From: a virus | Taxonomy: Duplodnaviria > Caudoviricetes | Virus record (IMG/VR): IMGVR_UViG_3300020037_002952 | Location: 49,330-113,329 of that record | DNA: 64,000 nucleotides | Reading direction: 5' to 3' (one strand) | Shown: positions 5,052 through 51,017 of the stretch, in pieces | Numbering within the stretch: position 1 is the stretch's first letter | How the letters are laid out: every line of letters starts with the position of its first letter | Notes under the pieces: model-generated | Told to the model about the DNA's origin: nothing | Databases searched by the model: none | What the model saw: only the letters and a program-made list of their open reading frames with translations | Made by a program: the position numbers and the translations under genes

Positions 5052-5510
5052 ATGACTGAAATAGTAGAGCGTTTAGAAAAGAGGTTGCCTCAAGCTCCTC
5101 GTGAAGAAATTATTGGTATCGCCAATATTCTTGAACGCTATGAGATTACTCCGACAATCGAAGCTCTTGATGGAAAAGGGTACTTGTTTACTGACTTAAG
5201 AGGAAGAACTGCAAGAGTTCGTGCTGGAAGTTACAGAGGCCAAACTCTATATATAGAAGATCCACTGTCAGACGTAGCTGTTATAATGACTGAAGGACTT
5301 ATGGCTGGCTGGATCGAAACAGAAAAGTTAGAAAATTTAGATGACAGATTCGCCGTTAAGCTAGGGAACTTATACCCACTCCCAGATATATTTTCATTTG
5401 ATCAACAATGTGGACATCTTCAGATTCACGGAGGGTTTTATAACGGCATCGATTGGATTTGTTTTGGATGCGAAAGAGAGTTAGTATTTAATGACAAACG
5501 CAGAGTTTAG
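5052..5510 (+). CDS. Hypothetical protein
   Basis: 152-aa ORF downstream of the promoter. Confidence 0.6.
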   Translation: MTEIVERLEKRLPQAPREEIIGIANILERYEITPTIEALDGKGYLFTDLRGRTARVRAGSYRGQTLYIEDPLSDVAVIMTEGLMAGWIETEKLENLDDRFAVKLGNLYPLPDIFSFDQQCGHLQIHGGFYNGIDWICFGCERELVFNDKRRV

Positions 5511-36960: not shown

Positions 36961-37373
36961 TAGTTGCTCGTTTCTGGTAGGTAGTGAAGAGTGTATGTTA
37001 GATACGTAACAAATTTATCAAGACTAACAAATCTGGTGCCATAGGTGTTCTTCGGACCTTCTGATGTTACAATAATTTCAACAAGGCAGCCAAGGCTGGT
37101 CTTATAGCTAAAAATAGAACCGAGGGGTAGGTTTTGAAGTTCTTTAGCAGGGACAATTCGCCCGACTTTCAAAGACTCCGGTGGGGTTTCTGGCAAATAC
37201 TGAACCGTATAATCAATGGAGTATGGAAGTTCAAGGTGTAGCTTTAGATCGAATGCATCCCAACCCAACTTAGTGCTAATCCAAGTTTTCTTCCCGCAAG
37301 TAATAATGCTTCCAATGGGGAAGCCGTCAACATTTGTCATTGTGTCCCCGACCTTAGTGTCTTTGTTATACAT
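36960..37373 (-). CDS. 'VGD...LPxGS' duplicated-domain paralog
   Basis: FPIGSII..VQYLP..LKVG..LQNLPLGSI..HYLP. Confidence 0.65.
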   Translation of the reverse strand: MYNKDTKVGDTMTNVDGFPIGSIITCGKKTWISTKLGWDAFDLKLHLELPYSIDYTVQYLPETPPESLKVGRIVPAKELQNLPLGSIFSYKTSLGCLVEIIVTSEGPKNTYGTRFVSLDKFVTYLTYTLHYLPETSN

Positions 37374-38415
37374 TTTGCTCCTTAGGTTCTAGTTGTTTCC
37401 AAATCATTTTGCTATAATCTTTCCCATCTAACATTGCAAACAGGATGGATTTGTTATCTTTCTTCACTGCTTTTTGGGCAAACTTTTTGCGGCTTGTTTT
37501 AAACTCACGAAGATCATGGAAGTCTAGTTTCGCCTGAGCTTCAATCTCCGAATAAGCAAAGGTTAAATCAGTTTGGATCTGATGTACCAGTTCATAAAAC
37601 TCATCTGGTACAGTATCAAGAACTTTAAGAAAATCAATTCCTTCACTCATCGCCGCCCAAACTTTCTTCGGCGAGAAGTTCGTAATGATTCCGTGGAGCC
37701 GAACGTACTCTTCTTCTTTCAGTTTCAAAAGTTGAAGTCCATCCTTCGGGTCAAGGAATCTAAACACGTATCCTTCAAGGTTTCTTGGCGGTGCCTGAAC
37801 AGCTTCCTCGATATTTCTGTACTCGAAAACTTCCGTTCTTCTACCATTCCAACCGTCTAACATTGGATTATTCGGCCCTAGGATTGTTCCGGTGAGTATA
37901 TCTACTCCACATAAAAGTACCAAATCTTCATAATTATAATTGATTACGATTCGATTTTGCTTGTATATGATCTCAAATATTGGCGTTAGGTTTGCCGGGA
38001 ATGTGTGGTCTATGGTGCGAATTTTAGTTGTCGCCCAGATAGCCTGCTCTGAACTAAAGGACCCCCTCGTAGCTATAGAGGGTTGTCCATTAGAGTCAAG
38101 ATAATAAATCCCACAAGATCCATCAAGCTTATCTGTGACTTCCACGGGAGAATTATAATTTACCACGAATGGCTGTGGCTCAGACAAGTTAAAGAATTTC
38201 TTAATTGGTCTAGCTTTAATTTCTAAGCTTCCATCTAGGGCGTAGATTAGACCCCTAGATTGCAATGTTTCTGGCGTCCAAATTCTTTCATACGAGGCTT
38301 TAGCTGTATAGTTTGCTATAACAAGCTCTTCTTTTTCATGTTTCCTTATCGTAATATACCCTTCTCGGACGAATTCATGGAACTTGTCTATATCAAGTAT
38401 TTCATTAAGTTTCAT
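37366..38415 (-). CDS. RNA ligase, T4 Rnl1-like
   Basis: SRGLI, KKFFNL, TDKLDGS, ATRGSF, FEII, EGYV, KLK. Confidence 0.9.
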   Translation of the reverse strand: MKLNEILDIDKFHEFVREGYITIRKHEKEELVIANYTAKASYERIWTPETLQSRGLIYALDGSLEIKARPIKKFFNLSEPQPFVVNYNSPVEVTDKLDGSCGIYYLDSNGQPSIATRGSFSSEQAIWATTKIRTIDHTFPANLTPIFEIIYKQNRIVINYNYEDLVLLCGVDILTGTILGPNNPMLDGWNGRRTEVFEYRNIEEAVQAPPRNLEGYVFRFLDPKDGLQLLKLKEEEYVRLHGIITNFSPKKVWAAMSEGIDFLKVLDTVPDEFYELVHQIQTDLTFAYSEIEAQAKLDFHDLREFKTSRKKFAQKAVKKDNKSILFAMLDGKDYSKMIWKQLEPKEQNV

Positions 38416-42726: not shown

Positions 42727-42839
42727 CGGGGCGCATAGGATTCGAACCTATGAATAATAGCTGTTGTTATTGTCAGGTAACCGCCAATGACGCATTACGT
42801 CAGAGCGAAAGGACTATTATTCCACCTTAAAGACGCCCC
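42727..42839 (-). ncRNA. tRNA-like ncRNA (113 nt) with acceptor and T arms but no canonical D or anticodon arm
   Basis: GGGGCGT/GCGCCCC acceptor; ATAGG-TTCGAAT-CCTAT T arm; GAATAATAGT/GCTATTATTC 10-bp stem; inner TGACG-TAATG-CGTCA hairpin. Confidence 0.75.
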
Positions 42840-43458: not shown

Positions 43459-44493
43459 TTATTTCTCCTTAAGTAGAAACTTGTTATTGATTGCTTTAAA
43501 ATTACGATACTCATGTCCATAGAGCCACCAAACAATACCTTCAGCTTGACGCTGGGGACTGATAAGCGACTTAATTCCTTCAACTTGTTCGATGGCCTCA
43601 TCAGGTGAGTCTGGTAGTTCAAGATCCTTATAAATTGGAACTTGAATGCCAGGAATCGTCTGATGATCCATACCGAGAACTGCCGAATTAACAGTATTAT
43701 ATCCAAACTGGAGATTAAACGCTGAAAACTTCTGACCCTTAACTCCAAGAGGGTTGTTCTGGATTCCCTCGCCAAAGATTTCTCCCTGAAGCACCACCGC
43801 TTGCTCTCGGAACTCATCGGAAAATGATCGCAGGAACTCTTCGATTTCAAGTTCCCGAGCAATCTTCCAGTAAAGGTTGCCCTCCGTTTCCTTTAGCGCA
43901 AGGTTTCTTGAACAAACCCAGAACTTTCCAGTGGAGTCAAGACCATAGCTGGCAGATGTGCCATCAATCTTTTCAGTAGCAATGGCAGCAGTAACTTCCA
44001 ACGGGAAAATACTTCCAAGATTCTGAACTCTTTCTGCATCTGTTTTCTTCATAAAGAACGTGGGGAAAGACCCTTCCACTGAACCAGAAAGTTGTGCTGG
44101 AATCGGCGGTTCCCATTTTTCAATTTTGAGTAGCTCGGTAACGTCACTACCCTCAAAAATAAGATCCGGCGTAATTTCTGGGAAAAGTTTAAGTGGAAGA
44201 ATCAAACCCTGAGAGTATGTCTTCTTCAAACGAATAGTTCTCAGAACATGGCCCTGTTCACCAGCACTATTTGTTTTCAATCCTCGCTCTGCAAGAAACT
44301 CAAATCTTGAGTCTGTCACATCAATAAAGGAATCAATCTCAAAGAATACACAGAAGTCATTCACGGCCCAGTTATTGTCTTTTTGTGACACAACAGGCCA
44401 GCCGCCAACTGTGAGTTTAACAATCTGATCGGCGTCAGGGATTGGCTCTAATTTCTTAATTTGCTGGACACTTGCCAGCCTTCTTTCAGACAT
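43459..44493 (-). CDS. RNA ligase, Rnl2/DRB0094 family with N-terminal OB/tRNA-binding domain
   Basis: LEPIPDAD, YSQGLIL, KTDAERVQN, TEKIDGTS, VCSRN, QGEIFG, EGIV, FKAIN. Confidence 0.92.
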   Translation of the reverse strand: MSERRLASVQQIKKLEPIPDADQIVKLTVGGWPVVSQKDNNWAVNDFCVFFEIDSFIDVTDSRFEFLAERGLKTNSAGEQGHVLRTIRLKKTYSQGLILPLKLFPEITPDLIFEGSDVTELLKIEKWEPPIPAQLSGSVEGSFPTFFMKKTDAERVQNLGSIFPLEVTAAIATEKIDGTSASYGLDSTGKFWVCSRNLALKETEGNLYWKIARELEIEEFLRSFSDEFREQAVVLQGEIFGEGIQNNPLGVKGQKFSAFNLQFGYNTVNSAVLGMDHQTIPGIQVPIYKDLELPDSPDEAIEQVEGIKSLISPQRQAEGIVWWLYGHEYRNFKAINNKFLLKEK

Positions 44494-46168: not shown

Positions 46169-47492
46169 TTATTTTTCCTCCGGTAGATAAAGAATTGTCA
46201 TAGAATCTGTAAATAGTCCAAGCTTATCAATTTTGAATGAAGAGTGGTATGTGTCATCTCCAATTACACATACTCTTCCATCTCCATTGCAGCGATAGAT
46301 TTCTTCATAGCCACCACTATAAAATCGCACAACAGAAGCCTTCGGCAAACTTGAAAGCTCTCCTCGTGTGGAAATCTTATCTCCAACCTTGAAAATTTTC
46401 GCAGGCTCTTTAGGTGGTGAGGGGAGATATTCAACTCGTCGAGAGAGAGAAGCGAGGTTGCTGGTAATAAAATGCCAACTAGGGTATTCTTCCCAGCCGT
46501 TGAGAGTCTTAAGGTAGACTCCCACTCGACCAGATAAAATGGTCCCGGGCGGGAACTCAATATCTCTTCTGATTTTACAGCCAGAGTAAAATTCGGCAGC
46601 TTCTTCAAACTGTCCCGTATCAAAGACTCCAACATCGCCTTCGTTAATAGTCATAATCAATCCTTTGGTAGATGTAGAAGTTTCAGTGTGCATTTTTTGG
46701 ATCTATCAAGATCCTTAAGAGCCCAATGCCCATCGTTCGTTGGTTTGGTTAAAGAATCGTTCATGAAATTCATTTGGCCGCCGCCTCTCATAATCCAAAC
46801 GCGAATTGATCCGCTTATTTTACCAGTAACATGCACAACTGATCCTTTTGGCAATCTTTCAAGATCATCGTATGTAATCTCTTGTCCTTCTTTCAAAGGC
46901 TCTGGTGGAACGTACACAACCCTGACCGGATCGTTTGCTTCCCAATCGTTGCTTATGTCTACTGATTCCCACGCCATACCTGTGTCAATACGAATCCAAG
47001 CTCGATAGCTGCTAGCGATAATCAAACCAACTGGAATATCTTCACTCCACTGGTATTTTTGTCCAACTTCATACTTCATGATGTTTCTCCGATGTATTCG
47101 ATGTATAATGGTTGATTATCAAATCCATATTTATGGATTTTAACATTCGTCGAATCCAATCTATAGAGATTGGCATCTTCACATATCAAATAAAGATAAT
47201 CTTTGCACATTTTTTTTGGAAATCTTACTATGCTCCCCAATGGAAGCTTTTGTAGATTTTCTGCTTTAATCTTATCTCCAACTTTAAAAGGTTCAGTCGG
47301 CTGGTATACAATTTTTGTGTCAGGGTAAAAGTTGTAATTCGGTACAGAAGTACATGGGGACCATGAACCGTCATCTGACCAAACCCTAATCATTTTATTA
47401 TTAGATAGAATTAGGTAATGTAAACCTAAACCTTGAGGCTCTATAATTATTGTTCCTGGCGGCAATTTGAGATCAGGATCTTTAAAGTTCAT
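46169..47492 (-). repeat. Three tandem 'VGD...LPxGS' paralog genes (46169-46654, 46657-47079, 47076-47492)
   Basis: Each has two copies of the P(x)G[ST]I...[IL]xYLP module. Confidence 0.7.
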
Positions 47493-47520
47493 ATTTTCTC
47501 CTAGTGTTTTAAATTGGTTG

Positions 47521-47556
47521 AGCGCCCGGTGGGATTCAAACCCACGGCCTGAAAAT
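47521..47556 (-). pseudogene. 3' half of split tRNA-Arg(UCU)
   Basis: AGGCC-GTGGG-TTTGAAT-CCCAC-CGGGCGC; CGGGCGC pairs with GCGTCCG at 48270-48276. Confidence 0.8.
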
Positions 47557-47576
47557 TCTCAGCATTTCTGTCGTTA

Positions 47577-47611
47577 TATCAAGTATGGGAAAGAGACTCC
47601 CATACTTGATA
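47577..47611. promoter_or_regulatory. Perfect 14-bp hairpin directly after the CTGTCGTTA motif
   Basis: TATCAAGTATGGGA-N7-TCCCATACTTGATA. Confidence 0.7.
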
Positions 47612-47613
47612 GG

Positions 47614-47690
47614 TGCGGACGACAGGACTTGAACCTGCATGTGTCCAGTTACCCTTTCAAGTCTTTAGAAGAGACAGGGGATACGTCCGC
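47614..47690 (-). ncRNA. Non-canonical tRNA-like RNA with UCU (Arg) anticodon loop and no D-arm
   Basis: GCGGACG TAT CCCCT GTCT-CTTCTAA-AGAC TTGAA AGGG TAACTGGACACAT GCAGG-TTCAAGT-CCTGT CGTCCGC A. Confidence 0.8.
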
Positions 47691-48242
47691 ATGGAAGCTA
47701 TCTGTTCAAATGAATCGTGTTTAAAGCAATTCAAGGTGTTACGTGGATCTACCGGAAAGTATTGTTCTAAGTCTTGTGCTGCCAAAGTTAACGGTTCTAA
47801 GTACCCCAAAAGACATTCCTTGTATCAGTGTAAGGTTTGTGGGATTAACATCAGAGGAGAACAAAGTAAAACAACTGGAGTATGCACTGCTCATCGCCCT
47901 ACACCTGAAGAGAGAAGGCAAACGAAAATACAAGAATGGATCAATGGGAGTTGGTCCGGGGGCAGTGATCGTAAACTCTCTAACATAATCAGAAATTACT
48001 TACTTGACTTAAGTAATTATTGTTGTCAAGAATGTGGCTTTAACACTCCGCATCCAAGCGACGGTAAGTCTATTTTAGAAATAGATCACATAGATGGCAA
48101 CGGGACGAATCATACCCCAGACAACTTACGTGTTCTCTGTCCAAACTGCCATGCGTTAACCCCTACTTACAGAGCTAGAAATATGGGATTTGGTAGAGCT
48201 TATAAATATATAAGAGTTCCCATAAAGAAGTCTGAAGACTAG
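47691..48242 (+). CDS. HNH homing endonuclease, antisense to the surrounding genes
   Basis: CSNESC..YCSKSC; CQECG...LEIDHIDGNGTNH..NLRVLCPNCH; AGGGGA upstream of ATG 47691. Confidence 0.9.
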   Translation: MEAICSNESCLKQFKVLRGSTGKYCSKSCAAKVNGSKYPKRHSLYQCKVCGINIRGEQSKTTGVCTAHRPTPEERRQTKIQEWINGSWSGGSDRKLSNIIRNYLLDLSNYCCQECGFNTPHPSDGKSILEIDHIDGNGTNHTPDNLRVLCPNCHALTPTYRARNMGFGRAYKYIRVPIKKSED

Positions 48243-48276
48243 AAAACCTTTGCTCTGTTCACTGAGCTACGGACGC
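48240..48276 (-). pseudogene. 5' half of split tRNA-Arg(UCU)
   Basis: GCGTCCG TA GCTC-AGTGAACA-GAGC A AAGGT TT TCT A, then HNH antisense sequence. Confidence 0.8.
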
Positions 48277-48284
48277 AGACTTTA

Positions 48285-49101
48285 TCAGTTATTGACGTAA
48301 ATGGTTCTCCATTTATAGCCATCATCTAAATTTTGGTTTAGAATTCTATGATTATGACCAATACCATAAACGCCTAAGCTAGTCACAAATCTGGGACTTG
48401 ACTCGTTCCATCCTTGAACCAACGACCCGATAGGGACGATTTTCATTATATCCTTACTGCGAACCCAAGATCCAACAGGGATCTTCTTCGGCGGCAAATT
48501 CATATGTGCTGAAGTTACTTCAACACCCTCGAAATCATATCCTCCGCAATTAAGTTTGATCCCATCATCTCTTGGGGCAAGGATATAATCAAACACTCGT
48601 TGAAGTTCCGCTTTATTAACTGGCTTGCCGTTTGCTTCAAGTTCTACTGTGAGGTTAACTGTAATTTTACTCATCAGTTGCTGCCAAGTAACTAAGAGAG
48701 ACTTTTCGGTCACGAGAAATAACCATAGAAAGTTTCATTCTATTGGGATAACACGAACAGAGGCAAAGATTGCCACCTAAGATTAAGAGATTATGAGGAG
48801 CTCTACTATTATGAAGGTAGTGTTCATACGACACAATACTTCCAACAGGCAAATCTCCAAGATCTTCGCGACTCAGAATTTGTCCTTCTGCTAGTGGAAC
48901 ATACATGTTCTCAAATTGACCTGATTTCAGATTAATATCTGATTGACTCTCTAGTGGAACGGAGACTCCGATCCAGTCGTTAGAGTCTAGTCTTAAATAA
49001 TGTTGCCCATGTCTATTTCTACAGATAGACCCCGACACTTTAATCTGTGGTTTGCCGTGGTCCCATGTATCGCCAGTTCTTAGAGTTTTAGACTCGTTCA
49101 T
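48285..49101 (-). repeat. Two more 'LPxGS' paralogs (48285-48674 and 48667-49101)
   Basis: IPVGSW/VPIGSL and EGQIL..LGDLPVGSIV. Confidence 0.6.
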
Positions 49102-49295
49102 TTGTCCTCCGGAAGATAAAGAATAGTGAGTGTATATTTGCCTGGGTTATCAATTTCTACATTATGGAATGCACCATTAACATTCGCTGCATTAAATCTG
49201 CCATTTCCCGTACACATGTATACGCAGTTAAAATTTCCCATCTGCGCTTGAAAGATAGAGTGCTTAGGCAGCAAAGATGCTTGTTCTGCTGTAAT
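49098..49295 (-). pseudogene. Headless C-terminal half of an 'LPxGS' paralog
   Basis: ITAEQASLLPKHSIF...TLTILYLPEDK*, out of frame with the NadM-like ORF. Confidence 0.6.
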
Positions 49296-49644
49296 ACTGT
49301 GCGAAAGAATCCCTAGAATGATAAAGCGTTACTTGCTCGTCATGGATGAACATACTGTCTAGAATTTTATCATCAAGATTCTGGGACCAAACACTATCAT
49401 CGGGGTGGTCATCCAAGGAAGTTATAGTGTCACCATAATAATTAATTGATTCGAGATACTCTTTTACCATATTCATTCTGGACTCAACGGGCAGCGGATT
49501 ATTTGCGGAAGTAGGAAGGGGATTATTTCCAATGACTATTGCAACCTTGTCGCTCTTCCTTGCAACTTCCCGAATAATTGCTTTGTGTCCAGCGTGCAAT
49601 TCTGGCACTTGGAAACGTCCAACAATAACTCCAATTTTAGTCAT
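49264..49644 (-). pseudogene. Truncated NadM-like NMN adenylyltransferase (HxGH nucleotidyltransferase)
   Basis: GVIVGRFQVPELHAGH, NPL..R, DSVWS, SRDSF; ends early with no SxT motif or NUDIX domain. Confidence 0.7.
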
Positions 49645-51017
49645 TTTGTTTCTCCGAGATAGGCAATTGTGTAAACTTTGTCGAGGTAGTTGGGATTTTT
49701 TACGAAATATCCATCTGACTCCAGATACCAACCGGTGCCGCCGCCTCCGAGATAATAACCACCACTGTTATTACAAACCAATGACCCTGCCGGAAGTTTT
49801 TGAATTTCATTCCAAGTTACTGCATCGCCAACTTCTAGGGGCTTTGGTGGTAGGTATTCCAAATAGAATCCATAGTTAGGTGTACTTTTGGCTTTATATG
49901 TAAAAGCCGATCGCTCCCATTTACATGCAAGGTCTACACGCAGCCATAGTTCATCATACATGTTGCGAATAATTGAACCCAATGGCAACTCGGAGAGTTC
50001 TTTGTCTGTAAGTTTTTGTCCAATATAGTGTGTCAGCATATAACTCCAACTTCTAGAAGATATTTGATTTTGACTGTCTCAATGCTCTTGTGCATGATGT
50101 CCCAATTATGGATAATTTCTTCCTCGTCCTCTTCGGCTTCTTCATCATAGTCGTCACTGGCGATAAATAATCCGCCAGTAGTTACAAGAACACTCCACTC
50201 CCGACTAAAGAAGTAAGTAAAGACTGTTCCAACGGGAAGATTGTTAACATCTTTTTTCGAAATTTCATCGCCAACCTGTAGCAGCTGTGGCGGAAGATAC
50301 TTAATTGTATAGTTGGCAGACAAAAAAGCTATAGAAGCAATTCGTTCTTTTGCACAATGCCAAACCGAACCGTTTTTTAAAACGAGCACTATGTTTGTTC
50401 TATTTGGAAGGCTGTGAAGAATTGTGCCAACTGGCAGATAGTTAGCTTGATGCGGATTGATTGTTTGACCTAATTTAAACTTCATAATCTCTCCTTTAGC
50501 GGATCGGTAAATAGAAAAACTGGGGGAAGGTTAGCGTTTATGCCCACCAACTTCCCCCAGTTTTTCAGAACTTTACCTACTTTGTGTCAGGGACGTACAC
50601 AAGAGTAAGAGTCTTGGAAGAACTCCAATTCTTTTCCTTACCCTCTTTACCATCCTGGCAGATGGTGGACTTGTCGCCCTTCACCATGTAAATCTTGACA
50701 TCACCCTTAAAGCCAGTACCGGGAGGAAGATTAACAATGTCTGCGGGATAAACGACATCGCCCTTCTTGAAATTCTTCTTCTCGGTAAGACCAAGAGCCT
50801 TATAGGCCCGAGTGATTCCCTCTGAGCAAAACTTAAGCCCCGAGTTACGGTTATCCTCAAGATAAGTCGTGAACTTGTTCTCGGTACTTGTAGTGCTATC
50901 TCCAACATTGTAAATGCCTGCTGCTGCTAGTGCAGTAGCCATTTCTGCCGGATAAGTCCGAGCGGGGTCGGCAAGATACGTAAGGACCTTCTTCTGTGCT
51001 GCATTCAATTTACTCAT
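49641..51017 (-). repeat. Three more 'LPxGS' paralogs (49641-50039, 50033-50485, 50577-51017)
   Basis: LSELPLGSII, LPVGTIL, NLPPGTG, YLPP. Confidence 0.7.
50514..50566. terminator. Bidirectional intrinsic terminator
   Basis: GAAAAACTGGGGGAAG...CTTCCCCCAGTTTTTC. Confidence 0.85.

Follow-up and report, generated by a model that had tools for sequence, protein, structure and literature searches.

The stretch of DNA analysed here, hereafter the window, forms the final 64 kb of a virus record of 113,329 bp (IMG/VR record IMGVR_UViG_3300020037_002952; Caudoviricetes), and contained a transfer RNA gene, tRNA-Arg(UCU), that was broken in its anticodon arm by a 690-nt insert carrying an antisense HNH endonuclease gene, a second tRNA-Arg(UCU) gene of non-canonical build and a hairpin. 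The insert is probably a free-standing homing-endonuclease cassette that occupies its tRNA-Arg(UCU) target and supplies a differently built substitute for the gene that it interrupts. Positions are those of the window and lie on the minus strand unless marked otherwise.

A tRNA gene broken by a nuclease and tRNA cassette

The two parts of the broken gene, at 48276-48240 (tRNA positions 1-37) and 47549-47521 (positions 45-73), were separated by the 690 nt from 48239 to 47550. The 5' half, recognised by its sequence, by ARAGORN in intron mode and by its match to an intact gene in contig L014, comprised the acceptor strand GCGTCCG, UA, a D arm (GCTC-AGTGAACA-GAGC), A26, AAGGT and then UUUCUA. The 3' part read GGCC-GTGGG-TTTGAAT-CCCAC-CGGGCGC-T, corresponding to the end of the variable loop, the T arm, the 3' acceptor strand and U73. 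With introns allowed and at its default threshold, ARAGORN called the split tRNA with a 680-nt insert at 37/38; in normal mode it called no tRNA at the locus. The HNH open reading frame (ORF; 183 amino acids, 47691-48242, plus strand) ran antisense to the tRNAs, and its TAG stop (48240-48242) overlapped the old anticodon as the complement of C35-U36-A37, as noted in a preliminary description made from the sequence alone. The inner tRNA (77 nt, 47690-47614, anticodon loop CTTCTAA) was directly followed by a 15-bp hairpin (47611-47577) and, at the right end of the insert, a linker, TAACGACAGAAATGCTGAGAATTTTCA (47576-47550), that contained the motif TAACGACAG (47576-47568). All parts listed in the preliminary description (the tRNA halves, the antisense HNH gene, the 77-nt tRNA-like gene, the hairpin and the motif) were recovered in their places, with some adjustment: TAACGACAG is the complement of the motif as described (CTGTCGTTA), the hairpin has 15 bp rather than 14, and the halves do lie far apart, but homology to the 3' part begins at GGCC (47549) and not at 47556. 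The same 821 nt occurred at 100% identity in two further metagenome assemblies (L004 and L005), and the layout is therefore real and not an assembly artefact; being identical copies, these two carried no covariation or comparative information. A 92-nt segment containing the hairpin (47521-47612) folded at -37.3 kcal/mol (z -5.4); a search for a terminator-like site there found none, and there was no U-run downstream of the hairpin on either strand. The upstream gene ended at 48285 and the next gene started at 47492, both on the minus strand.

An uninterrupted allele at a syntenic locus

The preliminary description had proposed looking for a relative with an intact tRNA-Arg(UCU) at this locus, and one was found in L014, a 3.3-kb contig that bears the only homolog of the downstream gene P0122. 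Five L014 genes matched window genes between 49101 and 46169 in conserved order (27-49% amino-acid identity), and between the second and third of them lay an uninterrupted 73-nt tRNA-Arg(UCU) scoring 65.8 bits against the Rfam tRNA model. The window halves matched this gene at 36/37 positions on the 5' side and 29/29 on the 3' side (from GGCC to the discriminator), 65/66 in all, whereas the 60-nt flanks were only about 65-70% identical, a difference in keeping with co-conversion or with an insertion of recent date. AAGGT-TTTCTAC-ACCTT forms the anticodon arm in the L014 tRNA; in the window C38-ACCTT-T44 was gone, with ...GAGAATTTTCA in its stead, and other change was concentrated at the right junction. 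Since the intact L014 gene reads UCU, the anticodon of the broken tRNA is UCU, and the amber-suppressor reading that ARAGORN gave the split tRNA (anticodon CTA) was rejected. The 3' half had also been described as decayed; its TTTGAAT T-loop and U discriminator are native to the L014 gene, so that of the supposed decay only the replacement of ACCTT stands. The window and L014 thus differ by presence and absence of the cassette at one locus, as free-standing homing endonucleases do between related phages, and the unbroken allele bears out the view of the cassette as an insertion into a once-whole tRNA-Arg(UCU). The polarity of the insertion is established, the tRNA gene having been whole first and the cassette having come later.

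No relatives of two flanking proteins were found in IMG/VR, and no near relative of the locus was found among GenBank phages. Exact-word matches to the T arm and acceptor (L001-L003) were set aside as unrelated tRNAs or att sites. L001, an unrelated viral contig, carried a class I-shaped tRNA (5104-5177) that had no long arm and the serine anticodon GCU; its T arm (TTTGAAT loop included) and 3' acceptor strand were identical to those of the window tRNA-Arg, and its D-loop lacked GG. The tRNA locus of the window was itself enclosed by a tandem array (46169-50485) of at least six small paralogous genes of 130-175 amino acids, which were 24-55% identical among themselves and to the L014 genes; the members scanned had no Pfam match.

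The carried RNA and a family of rewired phage tRNAs

The inner RNA lacked a D hairpin and comprised a 7-bp acceptor, then an extended anticodon arm, a D-loop-like segment, UAACUGGACACAU, and a normal T arm. It was not called by ARAGORN, it stayed below the Rfam tRNA gathering score (tRNA-Sec only, at 22.3 bits against the 47 needed), and GenBank phages held no match to the inner tRNA sequence itself. Homologs adjoined HNH relatives in L007 and L010, with compensatory changes in every helix. A pattern search of IMG/VR that used the conserved single-stranded segment only returned 79 loci, representing 66 distinct RNAs of 76-77 nt. The structure that we propose for this family consists of a 7-bp acceptor, UA, a helix 11-13/37-39 plus C14-G33 with an AAA bulge, a 4-bp anticodon stem with a 7-nt loop, a 13-nt segment (UAAYUGGAYACAU) and a T arm with a 5-bp stem. 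Under it, 98.9% of 1,320 paired cells across the 66 RNAs were standard, and the covariation score was 0.80; shuffles gave 0.21, and sliding the partners gave no more than 0.135. Column pair 11-39 was A-U in 41 and C-G in 25 of the RNAs and unpaired in none, and column 11 lay outside the search pattern. The window RNA had the structural features of the rewired family and was the one copy found in the 113-kb record by a covariance model of the family (R1; 93.5 bits, E 1.2e-23), a score that is partly by construction because this RNA is row 1 of the 66-sequence alignment behind the model. The arrangement suggests that the D-stem strand 10-13 and the D-loop have moved behind the anticodon arm; in the modelled chain order (acceptor, 22-25, anticodon arm, 10-21, T arm) the same stacked core could form.

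Arginine anticodons were found in 64/66 family members. Of the aligned RNAs, 30 had ACG, 25 UCU and 8 CCU, with UCG, GCG and GAU once each; a further locus, L054, also reads UCU and stands outside the alignment. Family genes sat in same-strand phage tRNA arrays, some only 1-10 nt from a neighbouring tRNA and often near canonical tRNA-Arg genes with other anticodons; many encoded CCA, and most stood without any HNH gene. As judged from these sequences, the inner RNA is a member of a conserved and widespread phage tRNA family and not a decoy. The covariation of the family, its place in tRNA arrays, its arginine anticodons and the CCA encoded by many members make it plausible that the carried RNA is a working tRNA-Arg(UCU), though of a different build. 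By blastn, matches to rewired-type tRNAs occurred in 45 GenBank records, from 42 Streptomyces phages and 3 Microbacterium phages. The copy in Streptomyces phage Mildred21 (NC_042008, 91367-91442; L185, 1195-1270; R1 87.9 bits) has the anticodon UCG, shows a further swap at pair 13-37, lies directly after an HNH gene and is labelled tRNA-Phe(gaa) in GenBank; that of Streptomyces phage Jay2Jay (NC_029098, 75237-75313; L184, 1195-1271; R1 81.3 bits) bears the anticodon GAU and has no annotation. An 83-nt variant tRNA with the anticodon UCU occurred in L009 (2398-2480) and L100 (1907-1989), directly upstream of the HNH gene and on its strand. It has the acceptor GCCTCCT/AGGGGGC in common with the canonical tRNA-Arg(UCU) of L098 and a GCGA/UCGU-type helix round the anticodon arm, and has the look of a form midway between canonical and rewired.

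The function that such a tRNA would serve is one that the phage needs. AGA was its commonest arginine codon (36% of arginine codons, 17.4 per 1000), and the other tRNAs that ARAGORN found in the record were Ile(UAU) and Lys(UUU) only, with no other tRNA-Arg; once the canonical gene is broken, the rewired tRNA would be the only AGA decoder encoded by the phage. Two RNA ligase genes, both on the minus strand (37366-38415 and 43459-44493), lay 3-10 kb from the locus, one of the T4 Rnl1 type (PF09511) and one matching PF09414 with a PHA02142 OB domain. Such ligases are of the kind that phages use to mend cut tRNAs. The cargo rather than the nuclease might be the driving part: the rewired tRNA-Arg would, through its unusual build, escape a host defence that cuts tRNAs and be kept for that reason, the HNH gene would mobilise or amplify it, and the break in the canonical gene would be incidental. 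The value of the rewired family without HNH in most phage arrays speaks for this, as does the presence of ligases of the tRNA-repair type; moreover, amplification by SegB, a GIY-YIG enzyme of T4/T6, of a phage tRNA active against Septu, a defence that cuts tRNAs, has been demonstrated (PMC13096335). Against it, the idea leaves the break in a gene of the same anticodon unexplained, and no defence system or nuclease target was identified here. We regard it as distinctly unlikely to be the main explanation, and it is compatible with homing rather than opposed to it.

The HNH gene and its association with UCU tRNAs

The HNH ORF had 555 homologs at E<=1e-10. In an alignment with seven relatives (51-55% identity) it kept 56/56 clade-invariant columns, the zinc-binding cysteines and the HNH motif included (EIDHIDGNG..NH..NL.VLCPNCHALT), and it is placed with its Pfam HNH match (E 2.8e-5) in a homing-endonuclease family whose catalytic motif it retains; the gene is intact. 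The C-terminal end usual in the clade has been lost, and the protein extends 3-4 residues beyond that point, to a stop built from tRNA letters; the left edge of the cassette therefore lies within the last HNH codons. Other cassettes had, between the HNH start codon and the tRNA, a conserved spacer of ~30 nt that included a TATAAT-like box.

Among the HNH relatives with at least 47% identity, a tRNA with a UCU anticodon lay at the 5' side of the HNH gene in 13/13 distinct contexts examined. This tRNA was of the rewired type and divergent from the HNH gene in the window, L007, L010, L080, L063/L092, L104 and L109, of the rewired type on the HNH strand in L106, of the 83-nt variant type in L009 and L100, and canonical in L013, L098 and L102. 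More distant relatives (32-45% identity) sat in tRNA clusters beside other tRNAs, commonly Thr(UGU) and also Lys, Ser and Leu, and relatives in GenBank phages lay within the tRNA cluster of a T5-like phage and beside a tRNA in GAP32. Such a pattern, with UCU in all close contexts and other tRNAs beside distant relatives, would be expected if sub-clades specialise on particular tRNA genes.

The module of HNH gene and rewired tRNA occurred in unrelated gene neighbourhoods. In L063/L092 it had CCCCAAT on one side and, on the other, a T arm with ATTGGGG after it, and thus interrupted a second tRNA-like gene; in L080 a 5' tRNA fragment had the HNH stop within its D-loop, and no 3' piece was reached before the contig end; in L010 a 13-nt tRNA stub was left beside the module; and in L007 the module adjoined a whole tRNA-Gly. 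These contexts fit a module that is mobile between sites, though not always tidily. As nested cases we accepted only the window, supported by L014, and L063/L092, supported by acceptor and T-arm pairing. The Leu(CAA) label that ARAGORN gave the outer tRNA of L063 is weak and rests on in-silico joins, and the 'split tRNA' calls that ARAGORN made elsewhere were largely artefacts that reused a neighbouring whole tRNA.

The untidiness of these junctions bears on a rival account, a one-off illegitimate insertion by chance recombination between tRNA-like sequences, without site-specific cleavage, that persists because a UCU tRNA remains. Cassettes fused to tRNA fragments at differing positions, as in L080 and L010, or lying beside an intact tRNA-Gly, as in L007, would be natural on this account, and the loss of seven bases and the differing junction sequences are untidy for precise homing; short strings common to tRNA genes, such as GTAGCTCAGTGAA in the window and L080, could act as seeds for recombination. 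On the other side, the link to UCU in all 13 contexts and to other tRNAs in distant clades argues for specificity, the HNH gene is intact and conserved, and the interrupted tRNA, broken precisely in its anticodon loop, has the cargo's own anticodon. We therefore judge illegitimate insertion unlikely, if conceivable.

Other arrangements of HNH genes and tRNAs were seen among the distant relatives. At eight loci (L160, L169, L171, L172, L175, L181, L182 and L183; ARAGORN, 8/8) a distant HNH gene lay inside a 690-790-nt insert of tRNA-Leu(UAA). In the single locus that was read, L171 (1001-1877), the ORF was in sense and the insert lay exactly between U34 and A35, which is the classical group I intron site; its junctions were intron-like, with the exon ending in U and the insert in G. 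A group I check of these recurrent loci with Rfam gave no match, and in L171 the Rfam group I model had none even at E<=1. In L137/L143 (1418-2159), a 5' piece of tRNA-Lys(UUU) (1 to ~33) was followed by a sense HNH gene, an odd 81-nt tRNA and a second tRNA-Lys(UUU); the last was nearly complete, lacked a matching 5' acceptor strand, and paired through its 3' acceptor strand with the far upstream piece.

Proposed homing and the fate of the broken tRNA

The 690-nt cassette (antisense HNH gene, non-canonical tRNA-Arg(UCU) and hairpin) replaced seven bases of the anticodon arm. We postulate that the HNH enzyme would cut cassette-free tRNA-Arg(UCU) genes of co-infecting relatives, and that recombinational repair would then copy the cassette in; the 13/13 link of the close HNH clade to UCU tRNA genes is indirect support for such site-specific cutting. 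The broken tRNA would stay unjoined, and the carried tRNA, its gene presumably too divergent in sequence to be a target, would sustain AGA decoding. In synthetic 'cleave and rescue' gene drives, a nuclease destroys a needed gene while a linked, recoded rescue copy cannot be cut. The locus may represent a natural drive of this kind, with an HNH clade specialised on tRNA-Arg(UCU) and a rescue tRNA that is re-threaded so as to keep the L-shape and remain uncut, a proposal that we put forward tentatively. The engineered drives use Cas9 on protein genes of animals, whereas the window would hold a natural one with an HNH enzyme, a phage tRNA gene and predicted cleavage. If the proposal is true, escape from homing endonucleases could be one force that creates new tRNA topology.

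Several observations weigh against a homing cassette in a tRNA that stays broken. The relative with an intact allele is one only (L014), and a distant one. Elsewhere, cassettes occupy different tRNA-like genes and different places in them (in L080 the D-loop), so that insertion may be less specific for its site than in classical homing. The start codon of the window HNH gene abuts the first base of the inner tRNA, the promoter-like spacer of ~30 nt is missing, and expression of this copy is therefore uncertain. Finally, the old anticodon stem still pairs with the new right junction, where two C-to-U changes give G-U pairs, and the phage encodes the two RNA ligases, which together leave some room for rejoining at the RNA level.

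Such rejoining would make the insert intron-like: the halves would be cut and re-ligated as RNA, for example by a host nuclease and the phage ligases, and both a canonical and a rewired tRNA-Arg(UCU) would result. The nearly unchanged halves (65/66), with intact acceptor and T arms, are in keeping with this, as are the Rnl1-type and PF09414 ligases 3-10 kb away. By cofolding, the linker can pair with the old anticodon loop through GACAGAAA (47572-47565) and with the 5' strand of the old anticodon stem through ATTTT (47556-47552; two G-U), a pairing by G-U that requires RNA of this strand. A second helix, between UUUCU(A)GUC and GAC-AGAAA (8 Watson-Crick pairs, or 9 with 3 G-U), can close the insert; its duplex energy was not above that of shuffles (541/2000 for the window, 227/2000 for L063), and it was not used as evidence.

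The known routes of rejoining found no support. Rfam gave no intron family between 47300 and 48500 at E<=10, and thus no group I match even at that threshold, and RF00028 was also absent from the whole window at its gathering score. The ORF is antisense and occupies the insert up to the 5' junction, so the HNH gene is not housed in a self-splicing intron or intein. No 5'-U/3'-G pair gave a 7-nt loop and 5-bp stem as the group I junction rule asks; the only join yielding a 7-nt loop falls after A37, where C38-ACCTT-T44 is missing, and rejoining would yield a tRNA whose variable loop is 6 nt long and whose anticodon stem contains two G-U pairs. Splicing of the bulge-helix-bulge type was rejected, the 3-4-3 motif being absent at the borders (in the best cofold a 5-bp helix was flanked by bulges of 1 and 8 nt); EndA (PF01974) and RtcB (PF01139) were not found in the phage record, which is 56% complete. 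Among sequencing runs, no RNA data set was listed as containing the locus; contigs from four DNA runs covered it in pieces only and contained no joints, which weighs neither for nor against rejoining. The preliminary description had called the element splicing-independent, which the missing intron match, motif and enzymes support, and we consider the intron-like account very improbable.

Comparison with known systems

In the usual view, homing endonucleases persist in essential genes only by way of self-splicing introns or inteins or by being sited beside genes. If the homing reading is true, a third solution would be a cassette that lies inside a tRNA gene, kills it and brings a replacement of another build. 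Group I introns with homing endonucleases occur in tRNA anticodon loops, for example in bacterial tRNA-Leu(UAA), and share with the window an anticodon-loop insertion bearing an endonuclease ORF; distant HNH relatives lay in tRNA-Leu(UAA) in 8 loci, in sense and at U34/A35 in the one that was read (L171). Unlike such introns, the window insert has no detected core, has its ORF in antisense, lacks seven exon bases and holds a whole second tRNA. Archaea and algae (Nanoarchaeum, Cyanidioschyzon) have split and permuted tRNA genes, whose parts a splicing endonuclease rejoins at a bulge-helix-bulge. These genes resemble the window in that halves are encoded apart with a break at 37/38, but neither the motif nor a splicing enzyme was found here.

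In the tRNA region of T5, HNH enzymes act as free-standing homing endonucleases, and the HNH relatives in the tRNA cluster of a T5-like phage are placed as T4- and T5-type tRNA-cluster endonucleases are. The homing endonuclease SegB of T4 resides in the tRNA cluster; it drags tRNA genes along, and a conserved tRNA motif is part of its recognition site (PMC2330249). The window cassette is SegB-like as a nuclease gene among tRNA genes, without intron or intein, that is present or absent between related phages. SegB sits between whole tRNA genes and carries its neighbours, whereas the window cassette lies inside a tRNA gene, breaks it and, unlike SegB, adds a tRNA that has the same anticodon and another structure. 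'Fractured genes' are reported to be protein genes that a homing-endonuclease gene has divided and that split inteins repair (PMC2677866). They have in common with the window a host gene halved by a free-standing endonuclease gene with its function kept (in the window, as proposed), but they are rejoined by protein trans-splicing, whereas no rejoining signal was found in the window and a separate carried gene would serve. Our full-text literature search found no description of a tRNA gene broken by a cassette of nuclease and spare tRNA, nor of the rewired tRNA, and a review of non-canonical tRNAs did not mention phages.

The locus gives a concrete context to a widespread phage tRNA-Arg family whose core wiring is not that of the cloverleaf. 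Standard finders miss or mis-call this family, which affects phage tRNA counts and arguments from codon usage, and the family bears on the range of tRNAs taken to be acceptable to aminoacyl-tRNA synthetases and ribosomes. Because members occur in cultured Streptomyces phages, the tRNA part is open to direct tests.

Other RNA features

Two further structured RNAs were seen in the course of the analysis. A manA RNA (RF01745, 64.4 bits) lay inside the phage tRNA cluster of L013 (3651-3837), next to the HNH gene. In the window itself, a 113-nt tRNA-like RNA (42727-42839) had acceptor strands GGGGCG/CGCCCC and a perfect T arm (ATAGG-TTCGAAT-CCTAT); ARAGORN and Rfam gave no call for it, and an 8-bp helix, AATAATAG/CTATTATT, encloses 53 nt of its length.

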